The notes below the pieces were generated by a model that was not told where the DNA came from, did not search any database, and was given only the letters and a program-made list of their open reading frames with translations. Position numbers and translations under genes: made by a program. A DNA stretch of 64,000 nucleotides from Escherichia phage vB_Eco_BGP, in the sequence record OZ035849; one strand, given 5' to 3'. Numbering within the stretch: the first letter of the stretch is position 1; each line of letters starts with the position of its first letter. This document shows, piece after piece, positions 1,403 through 51,483 of the stretch.

Positions 1403-2742
<1,340 letters not shown>

Positions 2743-45548: not shown

Positions 45549-45808
45549 TTTTACGATTTAAAGATACTTCTGGCGTTGTTCTTTTTACACTTCCTAACCC
45601 AAGCGAGTTAGAAGTTCCAGGACCAGAACAGCCTATTACCATTTATGGTAAAAAATACTATACTCATAAAATGACTCGTGAGTATTTTGATAATAAAATT
45701 TCCACAGTTAAAACTTCTTCTGACTGTTACTACGATATTACTGTTTTAACGGAAAAACAATATGACGAATTATTCCAGCGTGGGCCGTCTATGCCGGGTA
45801 GTGAATAA
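45545..45808 (+). CDS. hypothetical protein (87 aa)
   Basis: ATGA overlap with td stop. Confidence 0.5.
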
Positions 45809-46088
45809 ATACAAATCCGACTTTGATGTTAATATTCACCGCGGTACATTTTGGGGAAATTACGTCGGTAAAGATGCTGGCAGCCGGGAGGCTGCCATTG
45901 AATTATTCAAAAAAGATTTTATACGTCGAATTAAATCCGGAGAAATAACTAAAGCACATTTAGAGCCTTTACGTGGAATGAGGCTAGGATGCACATGTAA
46001 ACCAAAGCCGTGTCATGGTGATATAATAGCTCATATAGTTAACCGATTGTTTAAAGACGATTTTCAAGTTGAGGACTTATGCAATTAA
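45762..46088 (+). CDS. hypothetical protein with DUF4326-like motifs (108 aa)
   Basis: GTFWGNY...[11 protein letters not shown] resembles the WGNP / C-x-C...CH pattern of DUF4326 as I recall it. Confidence 0.45.
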
Positions 46089-48343
46089 TTAATGTTATCA
46101 AAAGTAGTGGTGTTTCTCAGAGCTTTGACCCACAAAAAATTATTAAAGTTTTATCTTGGGCAGCTGAAGGAACATCAGTAGATCCTTATGAATTATATGA
46201 AAATATTAAATCTTATCTCCGTGATGGAATGACAACTGATGATATTCAGACTATTGTCATTAAGGCCGCTGCGAATTCTATTTCGGTTGAAGAGCCTGAT
46301 TATCAATATGTAGCTGCACGCTGTTTAATGTTTGCTCTTCGTAAGCATGTTTATGGACAGTATGAACCACGTTCATTTATTGACCATATTTCTTATTGTG
46401 TAAATGAAGGTAAATACGACCCTGAATTATTGTCAAAATATTCAGCAGAAGAAATTACATTTTTAGAATCAAAAATTAAGCACGAACGGGATATGGAATT
46501 TACTTATTCCGGGGCGATGCAATTAAAAGAAAAATATCTAGTTAAAGATAAAACCACTGGTCAAATTTATGAAACTCCACAGTTTGCATTTATGGCTATT
46601 GGAATGGCATTGCATCAAGATGAACCTGTTGATAGATTAAAACATGTTATCCGTTTTTATGAAGCAGTATCAACCCGACAGATTTCATTGCCAACTCCTA
46701 TTATGGCTGGTTGTCGTACTCCGACTCGACAGTTCAGTTCATGTGTTGTTATTGAGGCAGGTGATTCATTAAAGTCTATCAATAAGGCTTCCGCTTCAAT
46801 TGTTGAATATATCTCTAAACGCGCTGGAATTGGTATTAACGTTGGTATGATTCGTGCTGAAGGTTCTAAGATTGGCATGGGTGAAGTACGCCATACTGGT
46901 GTTATTCCTTTTTGGAAACATTTTCAGACTGCTGTTAAATCATGCTCACAGGGTGGAATTCGTGGCGGCGCTGCTACTGCTTATTATCCTATTTGGCATT
47001 TGGAAGTTGAAAATCTTCTCGTTTTGAAAAATAACAAAGGCGTAGAAGAAAACCGCATTCGTCATATGGATTATGGTGTTCAACTGAATGATCTAATGAT
47101 GGAACGTTTTGGAAAGAACGACTACATTACTTTGTTCAGTCCGCATGAAATGGGTGGCGAGCTTTATTATTCTTATTTTAAAGACCAAGACCGTTTCCGT
47201 GAATTATACGAAGCAGCAGAAAAAGACCCTAATATTCGTAAAAAGCGCATTAAAGCCCGTGAACTATTTGAATTGCTCATGACTGAACGCTCAGGAACAG
47301 CAAGGATTTATGTGCAGTTCATTGATAATACGAATAACTATACTCCATTTATTCGTGAAAAGGCACCTATTCGTCAGAGTAACTTGTGCTGTGAAATTGC
47401 TATTCCAACAAATGATGTGAATAGTCCTGATGCTGAAATTGGATTGTGTACTCTCTCTGCATTCGTACTGGATAATTTTGACTGGCAAGACCAAGATAAA
47501 ATTAATGAATTAGCAGAAGTTCAAGTTCGCGCTCTTGATAATCTGTTGGATTACCAAGGATATCCAGTTCCTGAAGCAGAAAAAGCTAAAAAGCGTCGTA
47601 ACCTTGGTGTAGGTGTTACTAACTATGCAGCTTGGCTGGCAAGTAACTTTGCTTCTTATGAAGATGCTAACGATTTAACACATGAACTATTTGAGAGATT
47701 ACAGTATGGACTCATTAAAGCATCCATTAAGCTCGCCAAAGAAAAAGGACCTTGCGAATATTATTCAGACACTCGTTGGTCTCGAGGCGAATTACCTATC
47801 GACTGGTACAATAAAAAGATTGACCAAATCGCAGCTCCAAAATACGTTTGTGACTGGTCGTCGCTGCGGGAAGACCTTAAGCTCTTTGGCATCCGTAATA
47901 GCACATTATCAGCACTTATGCCATGTGAGTCATCTTCCCAAGTTTCTAACAGTACAAATGGTATCGAGCCTCCACGTGGACCAGTCTCTGTTAAAGAATC
48001 AAAAGAGGGTTCCTTTAATCAAGTCGTGCCCAATATTGAGCATAACATAGACCTCTATGATTATACGTGGAAATTAGCTAAGAAAGGTAATAAACCTTAT
48101 CTTACGCAAGTAGCTATTATGCTTAAATGGGTATGTCAATCAGCTTCAGCGAATACATACTATGACCCGCAGATTTTTCCAAAAGGAAAGGTTCCAATGT
48201 CAATAATGATTGATGATATGCTATACGGATGGTATTATGGCATTAAAAATTTCTATTATCATAATACCCGTGATGGTTCTGGTACTGATGATTATGAAAT
48301 AGAAACTCCAAAAGCTGAAGATTGTTCATCCTGTAAATTATGA
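46079..48343 (+). CDS. nrdA: ribonucleotide reductase large subunit NrdA
   Basis: 754 aa; class Ia RNR alpha; matches T4 NrdA. Confidence 0.95.
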   Translation: MQLINVIKSSGVSQSFDPQKIIKVLSWAAEGTSVDPYELYENIKSYLRDGMTTDDIQTIVIKAAANSISVEEPDYQYVAARCLMFALRKHVYGQYEPRSFIDHISYCVNEGKYDPELLSKYSAEEITFLESKIKHERDMEFTYSGAMQLKEKYLVKDKTTGQIYETPQFAFMAIGMALHQDEPVDRLKHVIRFYEAVSTRQISLPTPIMAGCRTPTRQFSSCVVIEAGDSLKSINKASASIVEYISKRAGIGINVGMIRAEGSKIGMGEVRHTGVIPFWKHFQTAVKSCSQGGIRGGAATAYYPIWHLEVENLLVLKNNKGVEENRIRHMDYGVQLNDLMMERFGKNDYITLFSPHEMGGELYYSYFKDQDRFRELYEAAEKDPNIRKKRIKARELFELLMTERSGTARIYVQFIDNTNNYTPFIREKAPIRQSNLCCEIAIPTNDVNSPDAEIGLCTLSAFVLDNFDWQDQDKINELAEVQVRALDNLLDYQGYPVPEAEKAKKRRNLGVGVTNYAAWLASNFASYEDANDLTHELFERLQYGLIKASIKLAKEKGPCEYYSDTRWSRGELPIDWYNKKIDQIAAPKYVCDWSSLREDLKLFGIRNSTLSALMPCESSSQVSNSTNGIEPPRGPVSVKESKEGSFNQVVPNIEHNIDLYDYTWKLAKKGNKPYLTQVAIMLKWVCQSASANTYYDPQIFPKGKVPMSIMIDDMLYGWYYGIKNFYYHNTRDGSGTDDYEIETPKAEDCSSCKL

Positions 48344-48387
48344 TATAATGTGACTCATGGACGAGTCACTAACAAATGAGAAATAAT

Positions 48388-49179
48388 ATGAAATACTGTT
48401 CGGCAATAACCTACCCAGGTTCAAAACACAAATACATGGATTTTATTAATAGATTCGTATTGGGCTTTGATGATAATATAGTTTTAGATGCCTTTTGTGG
48501 CGGCCTCGGATTTTCTATGAATTGTGGTCGCCGTGTTGAGTGTAATGATATTAATTTTCATCTTATTAATATGTATAACAAGATGAAAGAGTCTTCATTT
48601 AATGATATACTCCAAATCATTGATGATTTTGGTTTAAATGACGTGGACCCTAAACCATTTTATTCTCTAGCAAAAGAATATGATAAAACCAAAAACGGGC
48701 TATATTTATATGTTCTGCATTTATTTGCATTCAGTTCGATGTTAAAATTTTCTAAAGATGATAAGTATATAGCTTCTTTTGCAAATAGAGCCAAATATTC
48801 TAGAACTTCTTTTAATAAATCACAACAAGATAAATTCGCAGCTTTTAAAAATCGTCAACATTTGTTAAGTTTTTCAAATAAATCATTCAGAGATTTAGAT
48901 TTTGAAAACAAGAACTTATTTATCGACCCACCATATCTTTCTACTAAATTTAAATATTCAGGGTGGGAAGAAAAGGATGAATTAGAATTATTAGATAAAA
49001 TTAAACGATCAAAGTCTAAATTTATTATTACTAATAATCTATCAGATGATATTGATAATAACATTCTAAAAGATTGGGCCCTTTCTAATAATTTCAAAAT
49101 TGAATATTTTAAAACCAGATACCAAAAAATATCAAAAGGCGTATCATTTCAGACTGAAGTGCTTATACATAATATGTGA
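48388..49179 (+). CDS. second Dam-family N6-adenine DNA methyltransferase (divergent paralogue)
   Basis: YPGSK, AFCGGLGFS (motif I) and DPPY (motif IV) in the same order as the Dam at 1963; rough by-eye identity about a third; alternative ATG at 48376. Confidence 0.8.
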   Translation: MKYCSAITYPGSKHKYMDFINRFVLGFDDNIVLDAFCGGLGFSMNCGRRVECNDINFHLINMYNKMKESSFNDILQIIDDFGLNDVDPKPFYSLAKEYDKTKNGLYLYVLHLFAFSSMLKFSKDDKYIASFANRAKYSRTSFNKSQQDKFAAFKNRQHLLSFSNKSFRDLDFENKNLFIDPPYLSTKFKYSGWEEKDELELLDKIKRSKSKFIITNNLSDDIDNNILKDWALSNNFKIEYFKTRYQKISKGVSFQTEVLIHNM

Positions 49180-49213
49180 TTAAATATTTAAACCTATAAT
49201 AAGAGAGAATAAT

Positions 49214-49889
49214 ATGTCTACAGTTTTTAATACAAATCCAGTTGATGTTTTAAAAGAACCTATGTTTTTTGGTTCAGGTCTTGGTATTGCACGTTATGAT
49301 ATTCAACGGCATCGAGTATTTGAAGAACTTACTGAGAAGTCCTTATCATTTTTCTGGCGTCCTGAAGAAGTAAACTTAATGATGGATGCTGCACAATTTA
49401 ATAAGCTTCCTCAGTATCAGCAAAATATTTTTACTAATAACCTGAAGTATCAATCACTTTTGGATAGCATTCAGGGTCGTGCGCCATCTGCTGTACTTAT
49501 GTCATTAATTTCAGACCCAAGCCTTGATACATGGGTTGCTACATGGACTTTTAGTGAAACTATTCACAGTCGTTCATATACTCATATCATGCGAAATCTT
49601 TATACTGATCCGTCAAAGGTATTTGATGAGATTGTATTAGATGAAGCTATCATGAAACGTGCTGAATCCATTGGGCGTTATTATGATGATGTTCTGATTA
49701 AAACCCGTGAATGGGAAAATGCTAAAGAATTTGTAGAACTAGCTAAAGAATCTCCTGATGCTGTCTTTCGTTTAAACCGAGCTATTAAACAAGAAGCCGA
49801 AGCTAAACGTGCTTTAATGAAATCTCTTTACCTCTGTTTGCACGTTATTAATGCCTTAGAAGCTATTCGTTTTTATGTATCTTTTGCGT
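49214..49889 (+). CDS. nrdB: ribonucleotide reductase small subunit NrdB, exon 1
   Basis: Class Ia R2 N-terminal part; frame ends ...FYVSFA then stops 1 nt into the intron. Confidence 0.85.
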
Positions 49890-49999
49890 AAAATGCGCCT
49901 TTAAACGGTAACGTTTATCGAAAACTCCTTTAATTGCTGGAAAGTCCTTTATAGGAAAACTAGCAGCCAAGGTTTTGCTTGCACCTTTAATTAGTATAA

Positions 50000-50007
50000 T
50001 ATAAATA
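50000..50007 (+). promoter_or_regulatory. late promoter TATAAATA inside the intron, upstream of the endonuclease ORF
   Basis: Exact TATAAATA 28 nt before the ORF start, followed by SD AAGAGGA. Confidence 0.45.
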
Positions 50008-50034
50008 TGATTATACTTTTAAGAGGATGCACAA

Positions 50035-50844
50035 TTGAACTATAGAAAAATTTGGATAGATGCTAACGGACCTATACCTAAAGATTCCGATGGAAGAACA
50101 TACGAAATCCATCATAAAGACGGTAACCGTGAAAATAATGATTTAGATAATTTGATGTGCCTTTCTATACAGGAACATTATGATATACATTTAGCTCAAA
50201 AAGATTACCAGGCTTGTCATGCTATAAAGCTTAGAATGAAATATTCTCCTGAAGAAATTTCTGAATTAGCTTCTAAAGCCGCAAAATCTAGAGAAATCCA
50301 GATTTTTAATATCCCTGAAGTACGAGCTAAAAATATTGCCTCTATTAAATCTAAGATAGAAAATGGTACATTTCATCTTTTAGACGGTGAAATACAGCGT
50401 AAATCTAATTTAAATAGAGTTGCATTAGGTATACATAATTTTCAACAAGCTGAGCATATTGCAAAAGTTAAAGAACGCAATATTGCAGCTATAAAAGAAG
50501 GTACTCATGTATTTTGCGGTGGTAAAATGCAGTCAGAAACTCAATCAAAACGGGTAAATGACGGTTCACATCATTTCTTGTCAGAAGACCATAAGAAAAG
50601 AACATCAGCAAAAACATTAGAAATGGTTAAGAATGGGACCCATCCTGCACAAAAAGAAATCACATGTGATTTCTGCGGTCACATTGGTAAAGGTCCTGGA
50701 TTTTATCTAAAACATAATGACAGATGTAAATTAAATCCAAATAGAATTCAATTGAATTGTCCATATTGTGATAAGAAAGATTTATCACCATCAACATATA
50801 AACGATGGCACGGCGACAATTGCAAAGCAAGGTTCAACGACTAG
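50035..50844 (+). CDS. I-TevIII: intron-encoded HNH homing endonuclease (I-TevIII-like, full length)
   Basis: 269 aa; HNH motif EIHHKDGNRENNDLDNL; zinc-finger Cys pairs; probable TTG start with SD. Confidence 0.75.
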   Translation: MNYRKIWIDANGPIPKDSDGRTYEIHHKDGNRENNDLDNLMCLSIQEHYDIHLAQKDYQACHAIKLRMKYSPEEISELASKAAKSREIQIFNIPEVRAKNIASIKSKIENGTFHLLDGEIQRKSNLNRVALGIHNFQQAEHIAKVKERNIAAIKEGTHVFCGGKMQSETQSKRVNDGSHHFLSEDHKKRTSAKTLEMVKNGTHPAQKEITCDFCGHIGKGPGFYLKHNDRCKLNPNRIQLNCPYCDKKDLSPSTYKRWHGDNCKARFND

Positions 50845-50980
50845 TCTTCGGACGTAGGGTCAAGCGACTCGAAATGGGGAGAATCCCTCTGGGATTGTGA
50901 TATAGTCTGGTCTGCATAGTAATATGTAGCAGTTCATAAGAGAACGGGTTGAGAATTAGCGAGCTCAATCGAACATAACG

Positions 50981-51483
50981 GTACCTTTAACTTCCACAAG
51001 AATATGGAAATCATGGAAGGTAATGCCAAGATTATGAAGTTCATTGCACGTGATGAGCAGCTTCACCTTAAAGGCACTCAATATATTATTCGTCAACTTC
51101 AACTTGGCACTGATGGCGATGAATGGGTTAAAATTGCTCAAGAGTGTGAACAAGAAGCAGTTGATATTTTCATGGAAGTTAACCGCCAAGAAAAAGATTG
51201 GGCAGTTCATTTATTTAAAGATGGCGATGTTCCTGGATTAAATACAAATAGCATGTGGAGCTTTATTGATTACTTAACTGTATCTCGTATGAAACAGTGT
51301 GGTCTTCCATGCCCGATTACCGATGCTCCGGTTAAACATCCATATCCTTGGATTCGTGAATATCTTAATTCTGATAATGTTCAATCCGCGCCACAAGAAG
51401 TAGAACTGTCATCTTACCTTGTTGCACAGATTGATAATGATGTTGATGATAAAGTTATGATGAGTTTTAAAAAATACTTTTAA
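50981..51483 (+). CDS. nrdB: ribonucleotide reductase small subunit NrdB, exon 2
   Basis: Continues ...C-TFNFHKNMEIMEGNAK...; R2 C-terminal region. Confidence 0.85.

Follow-up and report, generated by a model that had tools for sequence, protein, structure and literature searches.

A rare, divergent Dam-family adenine methyltransferase gene predicted between nrdA and nrdB of T4-like phages

DNA hypermodification has its textbook example in the T-even phages, and the Dam enzymes of T4 and T2 serve as model methyltransferases. Within a 64,000-nt stretch of Escherichia phage vB_Eco_BGP (record OZ035849; hereafter the window, on which all coordinates are based), a T4-like (Tequatrovirus-type) nrd cluster runs in the order nrdA, an open reading frame (ORF) of 263 codons, nrdB and denA. 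By sequence and predicted fold, this ORF is a complete, divergent D12 or alpha-class (Dam-family) N6-adenine DNA methyltransferase, referred to here as the methylase and annotated in the databases as a 'DNA adenine methylase'. A canonical dam gene lies elsewhere in the window. The evidence assembled below makes it likely that the methylase gene represents an active orphan Dam-family cassette that has been exchanged laterally between phages (Table 1).

The match of the methylase to the Dam family is far beyond chance. Against Pfam PF02086 it scored 71.6 bits (cut-off 22; E = 1.1e-19), with residues 13-249 covering positions 1-251 of the 253-position profile, and PHROG 56, 'DNA methyltransferase', was matched with E = 9e-26. 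A preliminary description made from the sequence alone had reported an ORF of 263-267 aa between nrdA and nrdB carrying the motifs YPGSK, AFCGGLGFS and DPPY, with about one-third identity to the canonical Dam of the window, and both points are borne out; BLASTP aligned the two window proteins across 239 aa at 31% identity (E = 1e-31). The motifs follow the alpha-class order, with DAFCGGLGF at residues 34-42, the target-recognition hairpin at 115-143 and DPPY at 180-183. Residues K13, D34, F36, G38, N53, D54 and DPPY are all conserved in the methylase. Among 130 distant relatives, the lysine of YPGSK is kept in 125, residues D34, F36 and G38 of motif I in 116-128, and the residues of DPPY in 121-129. 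Alignment to D12 enzymes, which had been proposed as a check, confirmed a divergent D12 enzyme with intact catalytic motifs and a target-recognition region that differs in Lys120 and in an inserted AKYSRT segment.

Structural comparison gave the same assignment. In a single-sequence search, T4 Dam was the only relative found in the PDB (E about 1e-29), while a profile of the methylase family matched the T4 Dam structures at E = 2.7e-49 and E. coli Dam (EcoDam) and DpnM at only about 1e-6. An AlphaFold model, computed from a 40-sequence alignment, reached a predicted local distance difference test (pLDDT) score of 89.3 and a predicted template modelling (pTM) score of 0.88, with low confidence in the loop after DPPY and the hairpin insert (pLDDT 64 in the hairpin and insert region). 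Used as a Foldseek query, the model returned T4 Dam first (E = 1e-20, template modelling (TM) score 0.83-0.88), followed by EcoDam (0.73-0.80) and DpnM (0.71). The T4/T2 enzyme (M.EcoT4Dam, GATC; PDB 1yfj, 1yfl, 1yf3, 1q0s) is thus the closest known counterpart, resembling the methylase in predicted fold, size (259 versus 263 aa), alpha-class order and kind of beta-hairpin (F-S-x-M plus a basic residue), and each occurs as an orphan enzyme in a T-even-type phage. The two differ in their low identity and genomic position; relative to T4 Dam, the window allele has Lys for R116, and the methylase family has Ser/Ala for P126, Ala for G128 and a six-residue insert after R130. The GATC-specific D12 enzymes EcoDam and DpnM (PDB 2g1p, 4rtj, 2dpm) share the D12 fold and the catalytic residues, and Y137 of the family insert aligns with Y138 of EcoDam in a profile hidden Markov model alignment, but identity in the structural alignment is just 15-18%.

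Comparison with the empty nrdA-nrdB junction of phage RB32 defined the limits of the insert. The left junction directly follows GAGTCACYAAC, and the right one immediately precedes CTATAATAAG, the counterpart of which in RB32 is CTATTAACTAAG. A single gene, equipped with a ribosome-binding site of its own, makes up the whole content of the insert. At all occupied sites the second codon of nrdB is TCT, whereas it is AGC in the empty RB32 site and in T4. The same slot holds mobE and nrdB.1 in T4, as the preliminary description had stated for mobE. Seven of ~616 phage records matching the nrdA/nrdB junction contained the insert, and a protein search added Klebsiella phage PhiKpNIH-6, giving eight carriers; the survey of T4-like genomes thus found the insert in 8 of ~616 records and always in this slot. 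The methylase lies between nrdA and nrdB in 8/8 phage records and in every metagenomic contig inspected, and the carriers span phages classed as Tequatrovirus, 'Gelderlandvirus' and Marfavirus. The insert is therefore rare among T4-like phages, and its location is fixed. No cognate endonuclease gene adjoins the methylase, its neighbours being nrdA and nrdB at every locus examined, in agreement with the earlier view of an orphan enzyme, and it is not part of a type II restriction-modification pair with an adjacent nuclease.

The rarity of the family extends to wider sequence collections. Two independent searches of 5.8 billion clustered proteins found the methylase family as four clusters. When 1.84 billion cluster representatives were scanned exhaustively with HMMER, the methylase's own cluster was the only one to exceed 50% identity, the next match stood at 32%, and no closer enzyme of known specificity or with a restriction-enzyme neighbour turned up. 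IMG/VR yielded no relatives in two protein-guided scans, and a degenerate 39-nt DNA pattern conserved throughout the family had no match there, nor any in JGI metagenome contigs or in GTDB genomes. Complete E. coli genomes gave no match, and plasmids gave just Clostridium enzymes of ~30% identity; a host or prophage origin was rejected given that E. coli genomes, GTDB and plasmids held no relatives beyond these Clostridium enzymes. The nearest relative outside the T4-like phages is the 'DNA adenine methylase Dam' of Alcaligenes phage Afa-NA1 (XUE01680.1; 37% identity), itself uncharacterised, which shares the insert and its conserved R, K and R residues but belongs to another type of phage (78-kb genome) and lies beside topoisomerase genes, not nrd genes.

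The relationships among methylase copies conflict with those of the flanking genes. In the window, nrdA, nrdB exon 2 and denA share 96-98% identity with those of Tequatroviruses whose methylase is only ~80% identical, while the window methylase is 90-91.5% identical to the copies in CF-SP2 and fDHCT2, where the flanks are at 78-82%. Likewise, EP02SG and 236Ecol005PP share 97.7% identity in the methylase and 78.6% in nrdA. Because of this conflict, the methylase can be regarded as laterally exchanged and horizontally acquired. A sliding nucleotide comparison showed sharp identity switches near 48350 and near 48900, and the sequence relationships point to lateral exchange by recombination of the cassette and even of parts of it. 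Among the flanks, polymorphism is highest in the 5' portion of nrdB (78-92% identity to carriers, versus 96-98% elsewhere for the close Tequatrovirus relatives); recurrent conversion in this portion of the gene would fit such a pattern.

A neighbour-joining tree built from 138 D12 enzymes recovered the methylase family as monophyletic (200/200 bootstraps) and separate from the T4 Dam clade, with the Alcaligenes phage enzyme as sister (130/200 bootstraps). The distance between the family and T4 Dam, 1.52, was the same as that to many other relatives. A recent duplication of dam as the origin of the methylase was rejected, as the family falls outside the T4 Dam clade, and the tree argues for a separately acquired lineage. 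The gene had previously been thought either an old paralogue of dam or a horizontal acquisition; the conflict with the flanks upholds the horizontal alternative, and the tree does not support a recent paralogy, or any specific one, with T4 Dam. Across the family the ratio of nonsynonymous to synonymous substitution rates (dN/dS) is 0.03-0.18, with dS up to 1.7, and the methylase is under purifying selection.

The cassette shares several properties with homing endonuclease genes of the mobE type, namely the nrdA-nrdB slot, presence or absence among close relatives, the promoterless position within the nrd unit and relationships discordant with the flanks (PMC2790892). It differs from mobE and hef genes in that it encodes no HNH or GIY-YIG nuclease, the methyltransferase being the only domain found, and any spread must therefore come about through general recombination or the action of homing endonucleases encoded nearby. 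MobE mobilises neighbouring DNA of the nrdA-nrdB region by co-conversion (PMC2790892). In the window, the cassette lies 0.7 kb upstream of a group I intron in nrdB that encodes a full-length I-TevIII, and by analogy it is plausible that the cassette hitch-hiked on I-TevIII homing in this phage. This intron is absent from all other methylase carriers. Its ORF contains an HNH_3 domain (E = 6e-13), and the intron matches Rfam Intron_gpI at E = 4.6e-6, under the gathering score.

Two in-frame ATGs, at 48376 and 48388, would give proteins of 267 and 263 aa. The upstream ATG is missing in PhiKpNIH-6 and in the allele-B records 236Ecol005PP, EP02SG, T4_ev240, ECO07P2 and NR1, and a strong GAGGAG ribosome-binding site stands between the two ATGs, just before the second, in the allele-A loci CF-SP2 and L015 (a metagenomic contig). 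The conserved start was therefore placed at 48388. Of the 263-267 aa originally given, the 263-aa form is thus retained, and the four additional codons from the non-conserved first ATG are probably not translated.

The TATAAT and the 7-bp inverted repeat that had been described just upstream of the gene both exist, but are not signals of the methylase gene itself. Both occur almost unchanged at the empty RB32 junction, and in all carriers, and their presence at the empty site assigns them to the nrdA-nrdB spacer and not to the cassette. In PhiKpNIH-6 the repeat reads AGGCTC/GAGCCT, with two pairs altered on both sides; these two-sided changes keep the stem, and pairing or palindromy of the repeat therefore seems to be under selection. 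A 6-7-bp inverted repeat right after TATAAT at the nrdA stop is also seen in loci L001-L003, L006-L011 and L015, and both arms of the window repeat contain GANTC. The spacer hairpin has no T-run of a terminator and no Rfam match, and no terminator-like site was found upstream of the methylase. Nor did the region upstream of the methylase hold a convincing sigma-70 -35/-10 pair, the one weak match (9/12; 48358-48387) abutting the start codon. In T4, mobE is promoterless and co-transcribed with nrdA (Wilson and Edgell, PMC2790892), and in mobE-less phages a middle promoter of nrdB lies at the 3' end of nrdA or within the spacer, where a terminator is absent (PMC2790892). TGATATAAT is probably, if tentatively, the -10 element of this nrdB middle promoter in mobE-less phages, and the methylase is probably expressed with the nrd genes, by read-through from nrdA and/or from the spacer promoter.

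In both the window and T4, dam is present between the primase gene (gene 61) and the dCTPase gene (gene 56). At this position it was absent from NR1, 236Ecol005PP and CF-SP2, the three carriers checked, and NR1 and related Tequatroviruses have been described as lacking a T4-type Dam-like gene (PMC13390438). Genome-wide protein searches found a single Dam-family match in each of the carriers (8/8), and the methylase appears to be the only Dam-type gene in known carriers. The designation of the methylase as a 'second' Dam consequently applies to the window phage and not elsewhere. The window phage is the only one seen with both Dam enzymes, consistent with a mosaic make-up. Canonical Dam, at an identity of at least 90%, occurs in ~181 of the ~616 records (about 30%). 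The apparent lack of any further Dam-type gene in the other carriers favours a Dam substitute no less than a second specificity.

Table 1. Features of the nrdA-nrdB region and of the canonical dam gene, in window coordinates.
Feature	Position	Strand	Remarks
Methylase coding sequence, D12/alpha-class N6-adenine DNA methyltransferase (predicted), 263 aa	48388..49179, stop included	+	Counted from the conserved start
Single-gene insert, ~820 bp, approximate extent	48374..49193	+	Versus the empty nrdA-nrdB junction of RB32
N-terminal motif YPGSK	48412..48426	+	T4 Dam YTGNK; Lys13 aligns with T4 Dam K11
Motif I DAFCGGLGF, FxGxG S-adenosylmethionine (AdoMet)-binding loop	48487..48513	+	Invariant within the methylase family
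Putative target-recognition beta-hairpin with family-specific insert (FSSMLKFSKDDKYIASFANRAKYSRTSFN)	48730..48816	+	Aligns with T4 Dam 111-133 and EcoDam 119-143
Lys120 codon AAA	48745-48747	+	
Catalytic motif IV DPPY	48925..48936	+	Direct sequence; family-invariant
Four additional in-frame codons (MRNN) from the upstream ATG, probably untranslated	48376..48387	+	Upstream ATG not conserved
TGATATAAT, nrdA stop codon plus TATAAT (48344-48349)	48341..48349	+	Matches an extended -10
Inverted repeat GTGACTC-ATGGAC-GAGTCAC	48350..48369	+	RNA fold -10.7 kcal/mol, z = -2.1
nrdA (left flank)	46079..48343	+	96-98% identical to Tequatrovirus nrdA
Spacer from methylase stop to nrdB start, with nrdB ribosome-binding site	49180..49213	+	Sequence
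nrdB (right flank), split by a group I intron encoding full-length I-TevIII	49214..51483 (I-TevIII 50035-50844)	+	
Canonical dam	1963..2742	+	Protein 100% identical to T2 Dam; Pfam E = 6.5e-51

Combining these observations, the methylase would be a free-standing, AdoMet-dependent N6-adenine methyltransferase encoded by a promoterless insert of ~820 bp in the nrdA-nrdB hot-spot. The gene would be transcribed along with its nrd neighbours, on transcripts continuing from nrdA, on those started at the -10 element that precedes nrdB in insert-free phages, or on both, and translation would begin at ATG 48388 through the gene's own ribosome-binding site. The enzyme would then flip out and methylate the adenine of a short site, the most likely one being GATC or a close variant, on replicating phage DNA, where the methyl group may serve, as with Dam, as a protective or identity mark. 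Having no mobility gene, the cassette would pass from one T4-like phage to another through homologous recombination within the conserved nrd flanks, and in the window phage homing of the adjacent I-TevIII intron may also have carried it along.

The assignment of a target can be approached through EcoDam, in which recognition of the guanine in the fourth base pair falls to R124 and is lost in the R124A mutant, the inner A:T pair is touched by L122 and P134, Y119 is the intercalating residue, and K9 and Y138 see the first pair (PMC4417163). In the methylase, F115 aligns with the intercalating Y119 and M/L118 with L122, and the residues F115, S116 and M/L118 are retained; the first-pair contact of K9 and Y138 is not conserved in the family. 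The three nearest solved structures (T4 Dam, EcoDam and DpnM) are all GATC enzymes. We put the chance that the site of the methylase is GATC or a near variant at about even, and consider a site clearly different from GATC possible, if rather unlikely.

Several points weigh against the reading of the gene as an active Dam-like cassette expressed with the nrd genes. The methylase scores 70.1 bits against NCBIfam TIGR00571, the Dam subfamily model, and so fails the cut-off of 114.85 that the canonical Dam of the window passes with 234.8 bits; it also fails the E. coli Dam equivalog model NF008152 (17.6 bits, cut-off 441). In the window allele, Lys120 replaces the guanine-reading R124 of EcoDam (R116 of T4 Dam), a column in which 109/130 relatives have Arg and 5/130 Lys. 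The position of EcoDam P134 is Ser or Ala in the methylase family, with Pro in 55/130 relatives of unknown specificity, and that of G136 is Ala, with Gly in 122/130 relatives. Beside the hairpin stands the conserved, basic and aromatic six-residue insert AKYSRT, which has no counterpart in T4 Dam. Both enzymes are kept in the window phage, where they would be redundant if both act on GATC, and the occurrence of canonical dam in 0/8 carriers has a chance probability of about 0.06, which is not significant, the genomes moreover being related. Upstream of the TATAAT, no MotA box convincing by eye was found at the right spacing. Neither a study of this gene nor any methylome or digestion results for it turned up in the literature searched, which covered nrdA/nrdB methyltransferases, the carrier phages and second Dam enzymes of Tequatrovirus.

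The hairpin differences allow an altered or relaxed site, without proving one, and they are the ground for supposing that the methylase has a non-GATC target and lays down a second, independent adenine-methylation pattern, shielding the DNA from a defence that glucosylated hydroxymethylcytosine (glucosyl-hmC) and GATC methylation leave unblocked. Beyond the replacements at Lys120, Pro134 and Gly136, this proposal draws on the insert, in which one tallied column is a gap in 124/130 relatives and three residues, R134, K136 and R139, never vary, the Alcaligenes phage relative included, on the score under the Dam subfamily cut-off, on coexistence with canonical Dam in the window phage and on a lineage not nested in the T4 Dam clade. 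However, Lys120 is confined to the window, CF-SP2, fDHCT2 and P0001, the Arg being retained by most alleles, and a Lys would still be able to contact guanine; the Pro134 position is already variable among relatives, the structurally closest enzymes are all GATC-specific, and the other carriers appear to be without dam, as expected if the methylase does the same job. Divergence between the two alleles peaks in the hairpin (dN/dS 0.32, versus 0.11-0.22 elsewhere), but this value is still well below 1, and positive selection on the hairpin was judged unsupported. A second pattern of this kind is therefore best treated as doubtful. Equally tentative is its extension, by which Lys120 and the insert would confer a non-GATC or relaxed target (e.g. 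GATN, or a longer site), two N6-methyladenine patterns would overlie glucosyl-hmC, and the exchanged hairpin alleles would stand for different specificities in an arms race between phages and host defences.

Two further accounts are far less probable than either a GATC or a non-GATC enzyme. The methylase family is rare and patchy, its slot is populated by selfish elements (PMC2790892), and the model is of low confidence in the post-DPPY loop and insert, all of which would suit a catalytically inactive or decaying product, be it a passenger of a recombination hot-spot or a DNA-binding protein devoid of methyltransferase activity. This is very improbable given that the ORF is intact (263-264 aa) in every complete copy, the AdoMet-binding and catalytic motifs are all invariant, the dN/dS values are low at substantial dS, and the fold is predicted with confidence. 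It is similarly hard to credit that the gene is an anti-homing or phage-versus-phage device, whereby methylation in or near nrdA/nrdB, or of GATC genome-wide, blocks the nucleases of co-infecting phages, the candidates being MobE, which nicks nrdB at nt 122-126, and a DpnII-like protein beside the canonical dam of some T-even phages. The cassette does occupy the exact allelic slot of mobE, codon 42 of the window nrdB is AAG, as in T2 and all mobE-less phages (PMC2790892), the ORF beside dam (1403-1960) has a weak Pfam match to the DpnII endonuclease (E = 0.0045), and some Tequatroviruses have a restriction enzyme-like gene beside their Dam-like gene (PMC13390438). This support is entirely circumstantial; nothing indicates that MobE or I-TevIII is sensitive to adenine methylation, the DpnII match is below threshold in an ORF that belongs to a PHROG of unknown function, and no nuclease gene consistently accompanies the methylase. 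An active, laterally exchanged Dam-family cassette remains the reading we favour.

Further features of the window were recorded alongside these results. The gene nrdA.1 (45762-46088, + strand) lies just upstream of nrdA, which it overlaps, and encodes a DUF4326-domain protein (E = 5.5e-22). The I-TevIII-type HNH endonuclease in the nrdB intron of the window has its full length of 269 aa, whereas the T4 copy is truncated, and an nrdB intron with full-length I-TevIII is common to ~84 phage records (coverage at least 80%). Over the last ~250 nt of nrdB exon 1, identity to the three intron-less carrier alleles compared is 46-86% in 100-nt windows. In the carrier 236Ecol005PP (L003, 798-3966), nrdA is annotated as two pieces with a 'putative mobile endonuclease' gene between them, a further mobile insert within the nrd cluster.

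At the canonical dam locus, the ORF at 1403-1963 (+ strand, 186 aa) is situated between the primase gene (gene 61, 78-1106) and dam, the start of which (1963) it overlaps. It belongs to PHROG 8706, its sub-threshold Pfam match is to a restriction endonuclease of GATC specificity, and in phage Shinka GenBank labels the dam neighbour a 'putative restriction endonuclease'. Together with canonical dam, this ORF may form a phage-borne GATC restriction-methylation pair. In NR1, 236Ecol005PP and CF-SP2 both its counterpart and dam are missing from this locus. Across the whole window GATC is ~3-fold under-represented, with 70 sites versus ~214 expected from dinucleotide-preserving shuffles, 100/100 of which gave at least the observed count.

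The methylase is a real but fairly ordinary accessory gene, uncharacterised so far. Should its target simply be GATC, one Dam would have been replaced by a distant relative at another locus, a result of value for annotation and otherwise unsurprising. Should its target prove to differ from GATC, it would represent a new phage counter-defence mark and possibly a new enzyme specificity. The natural Arg/Lys variants at the guanine-reading position offer a convenient natural experiment on the evolution of specificity in the Dam family, and the presence of a rare mobile Dam-type gene in a homing-endonuclease hot-spot indicates that the nrdA-nrdB slot of T4-like phages also trades cargo other than nucleases.

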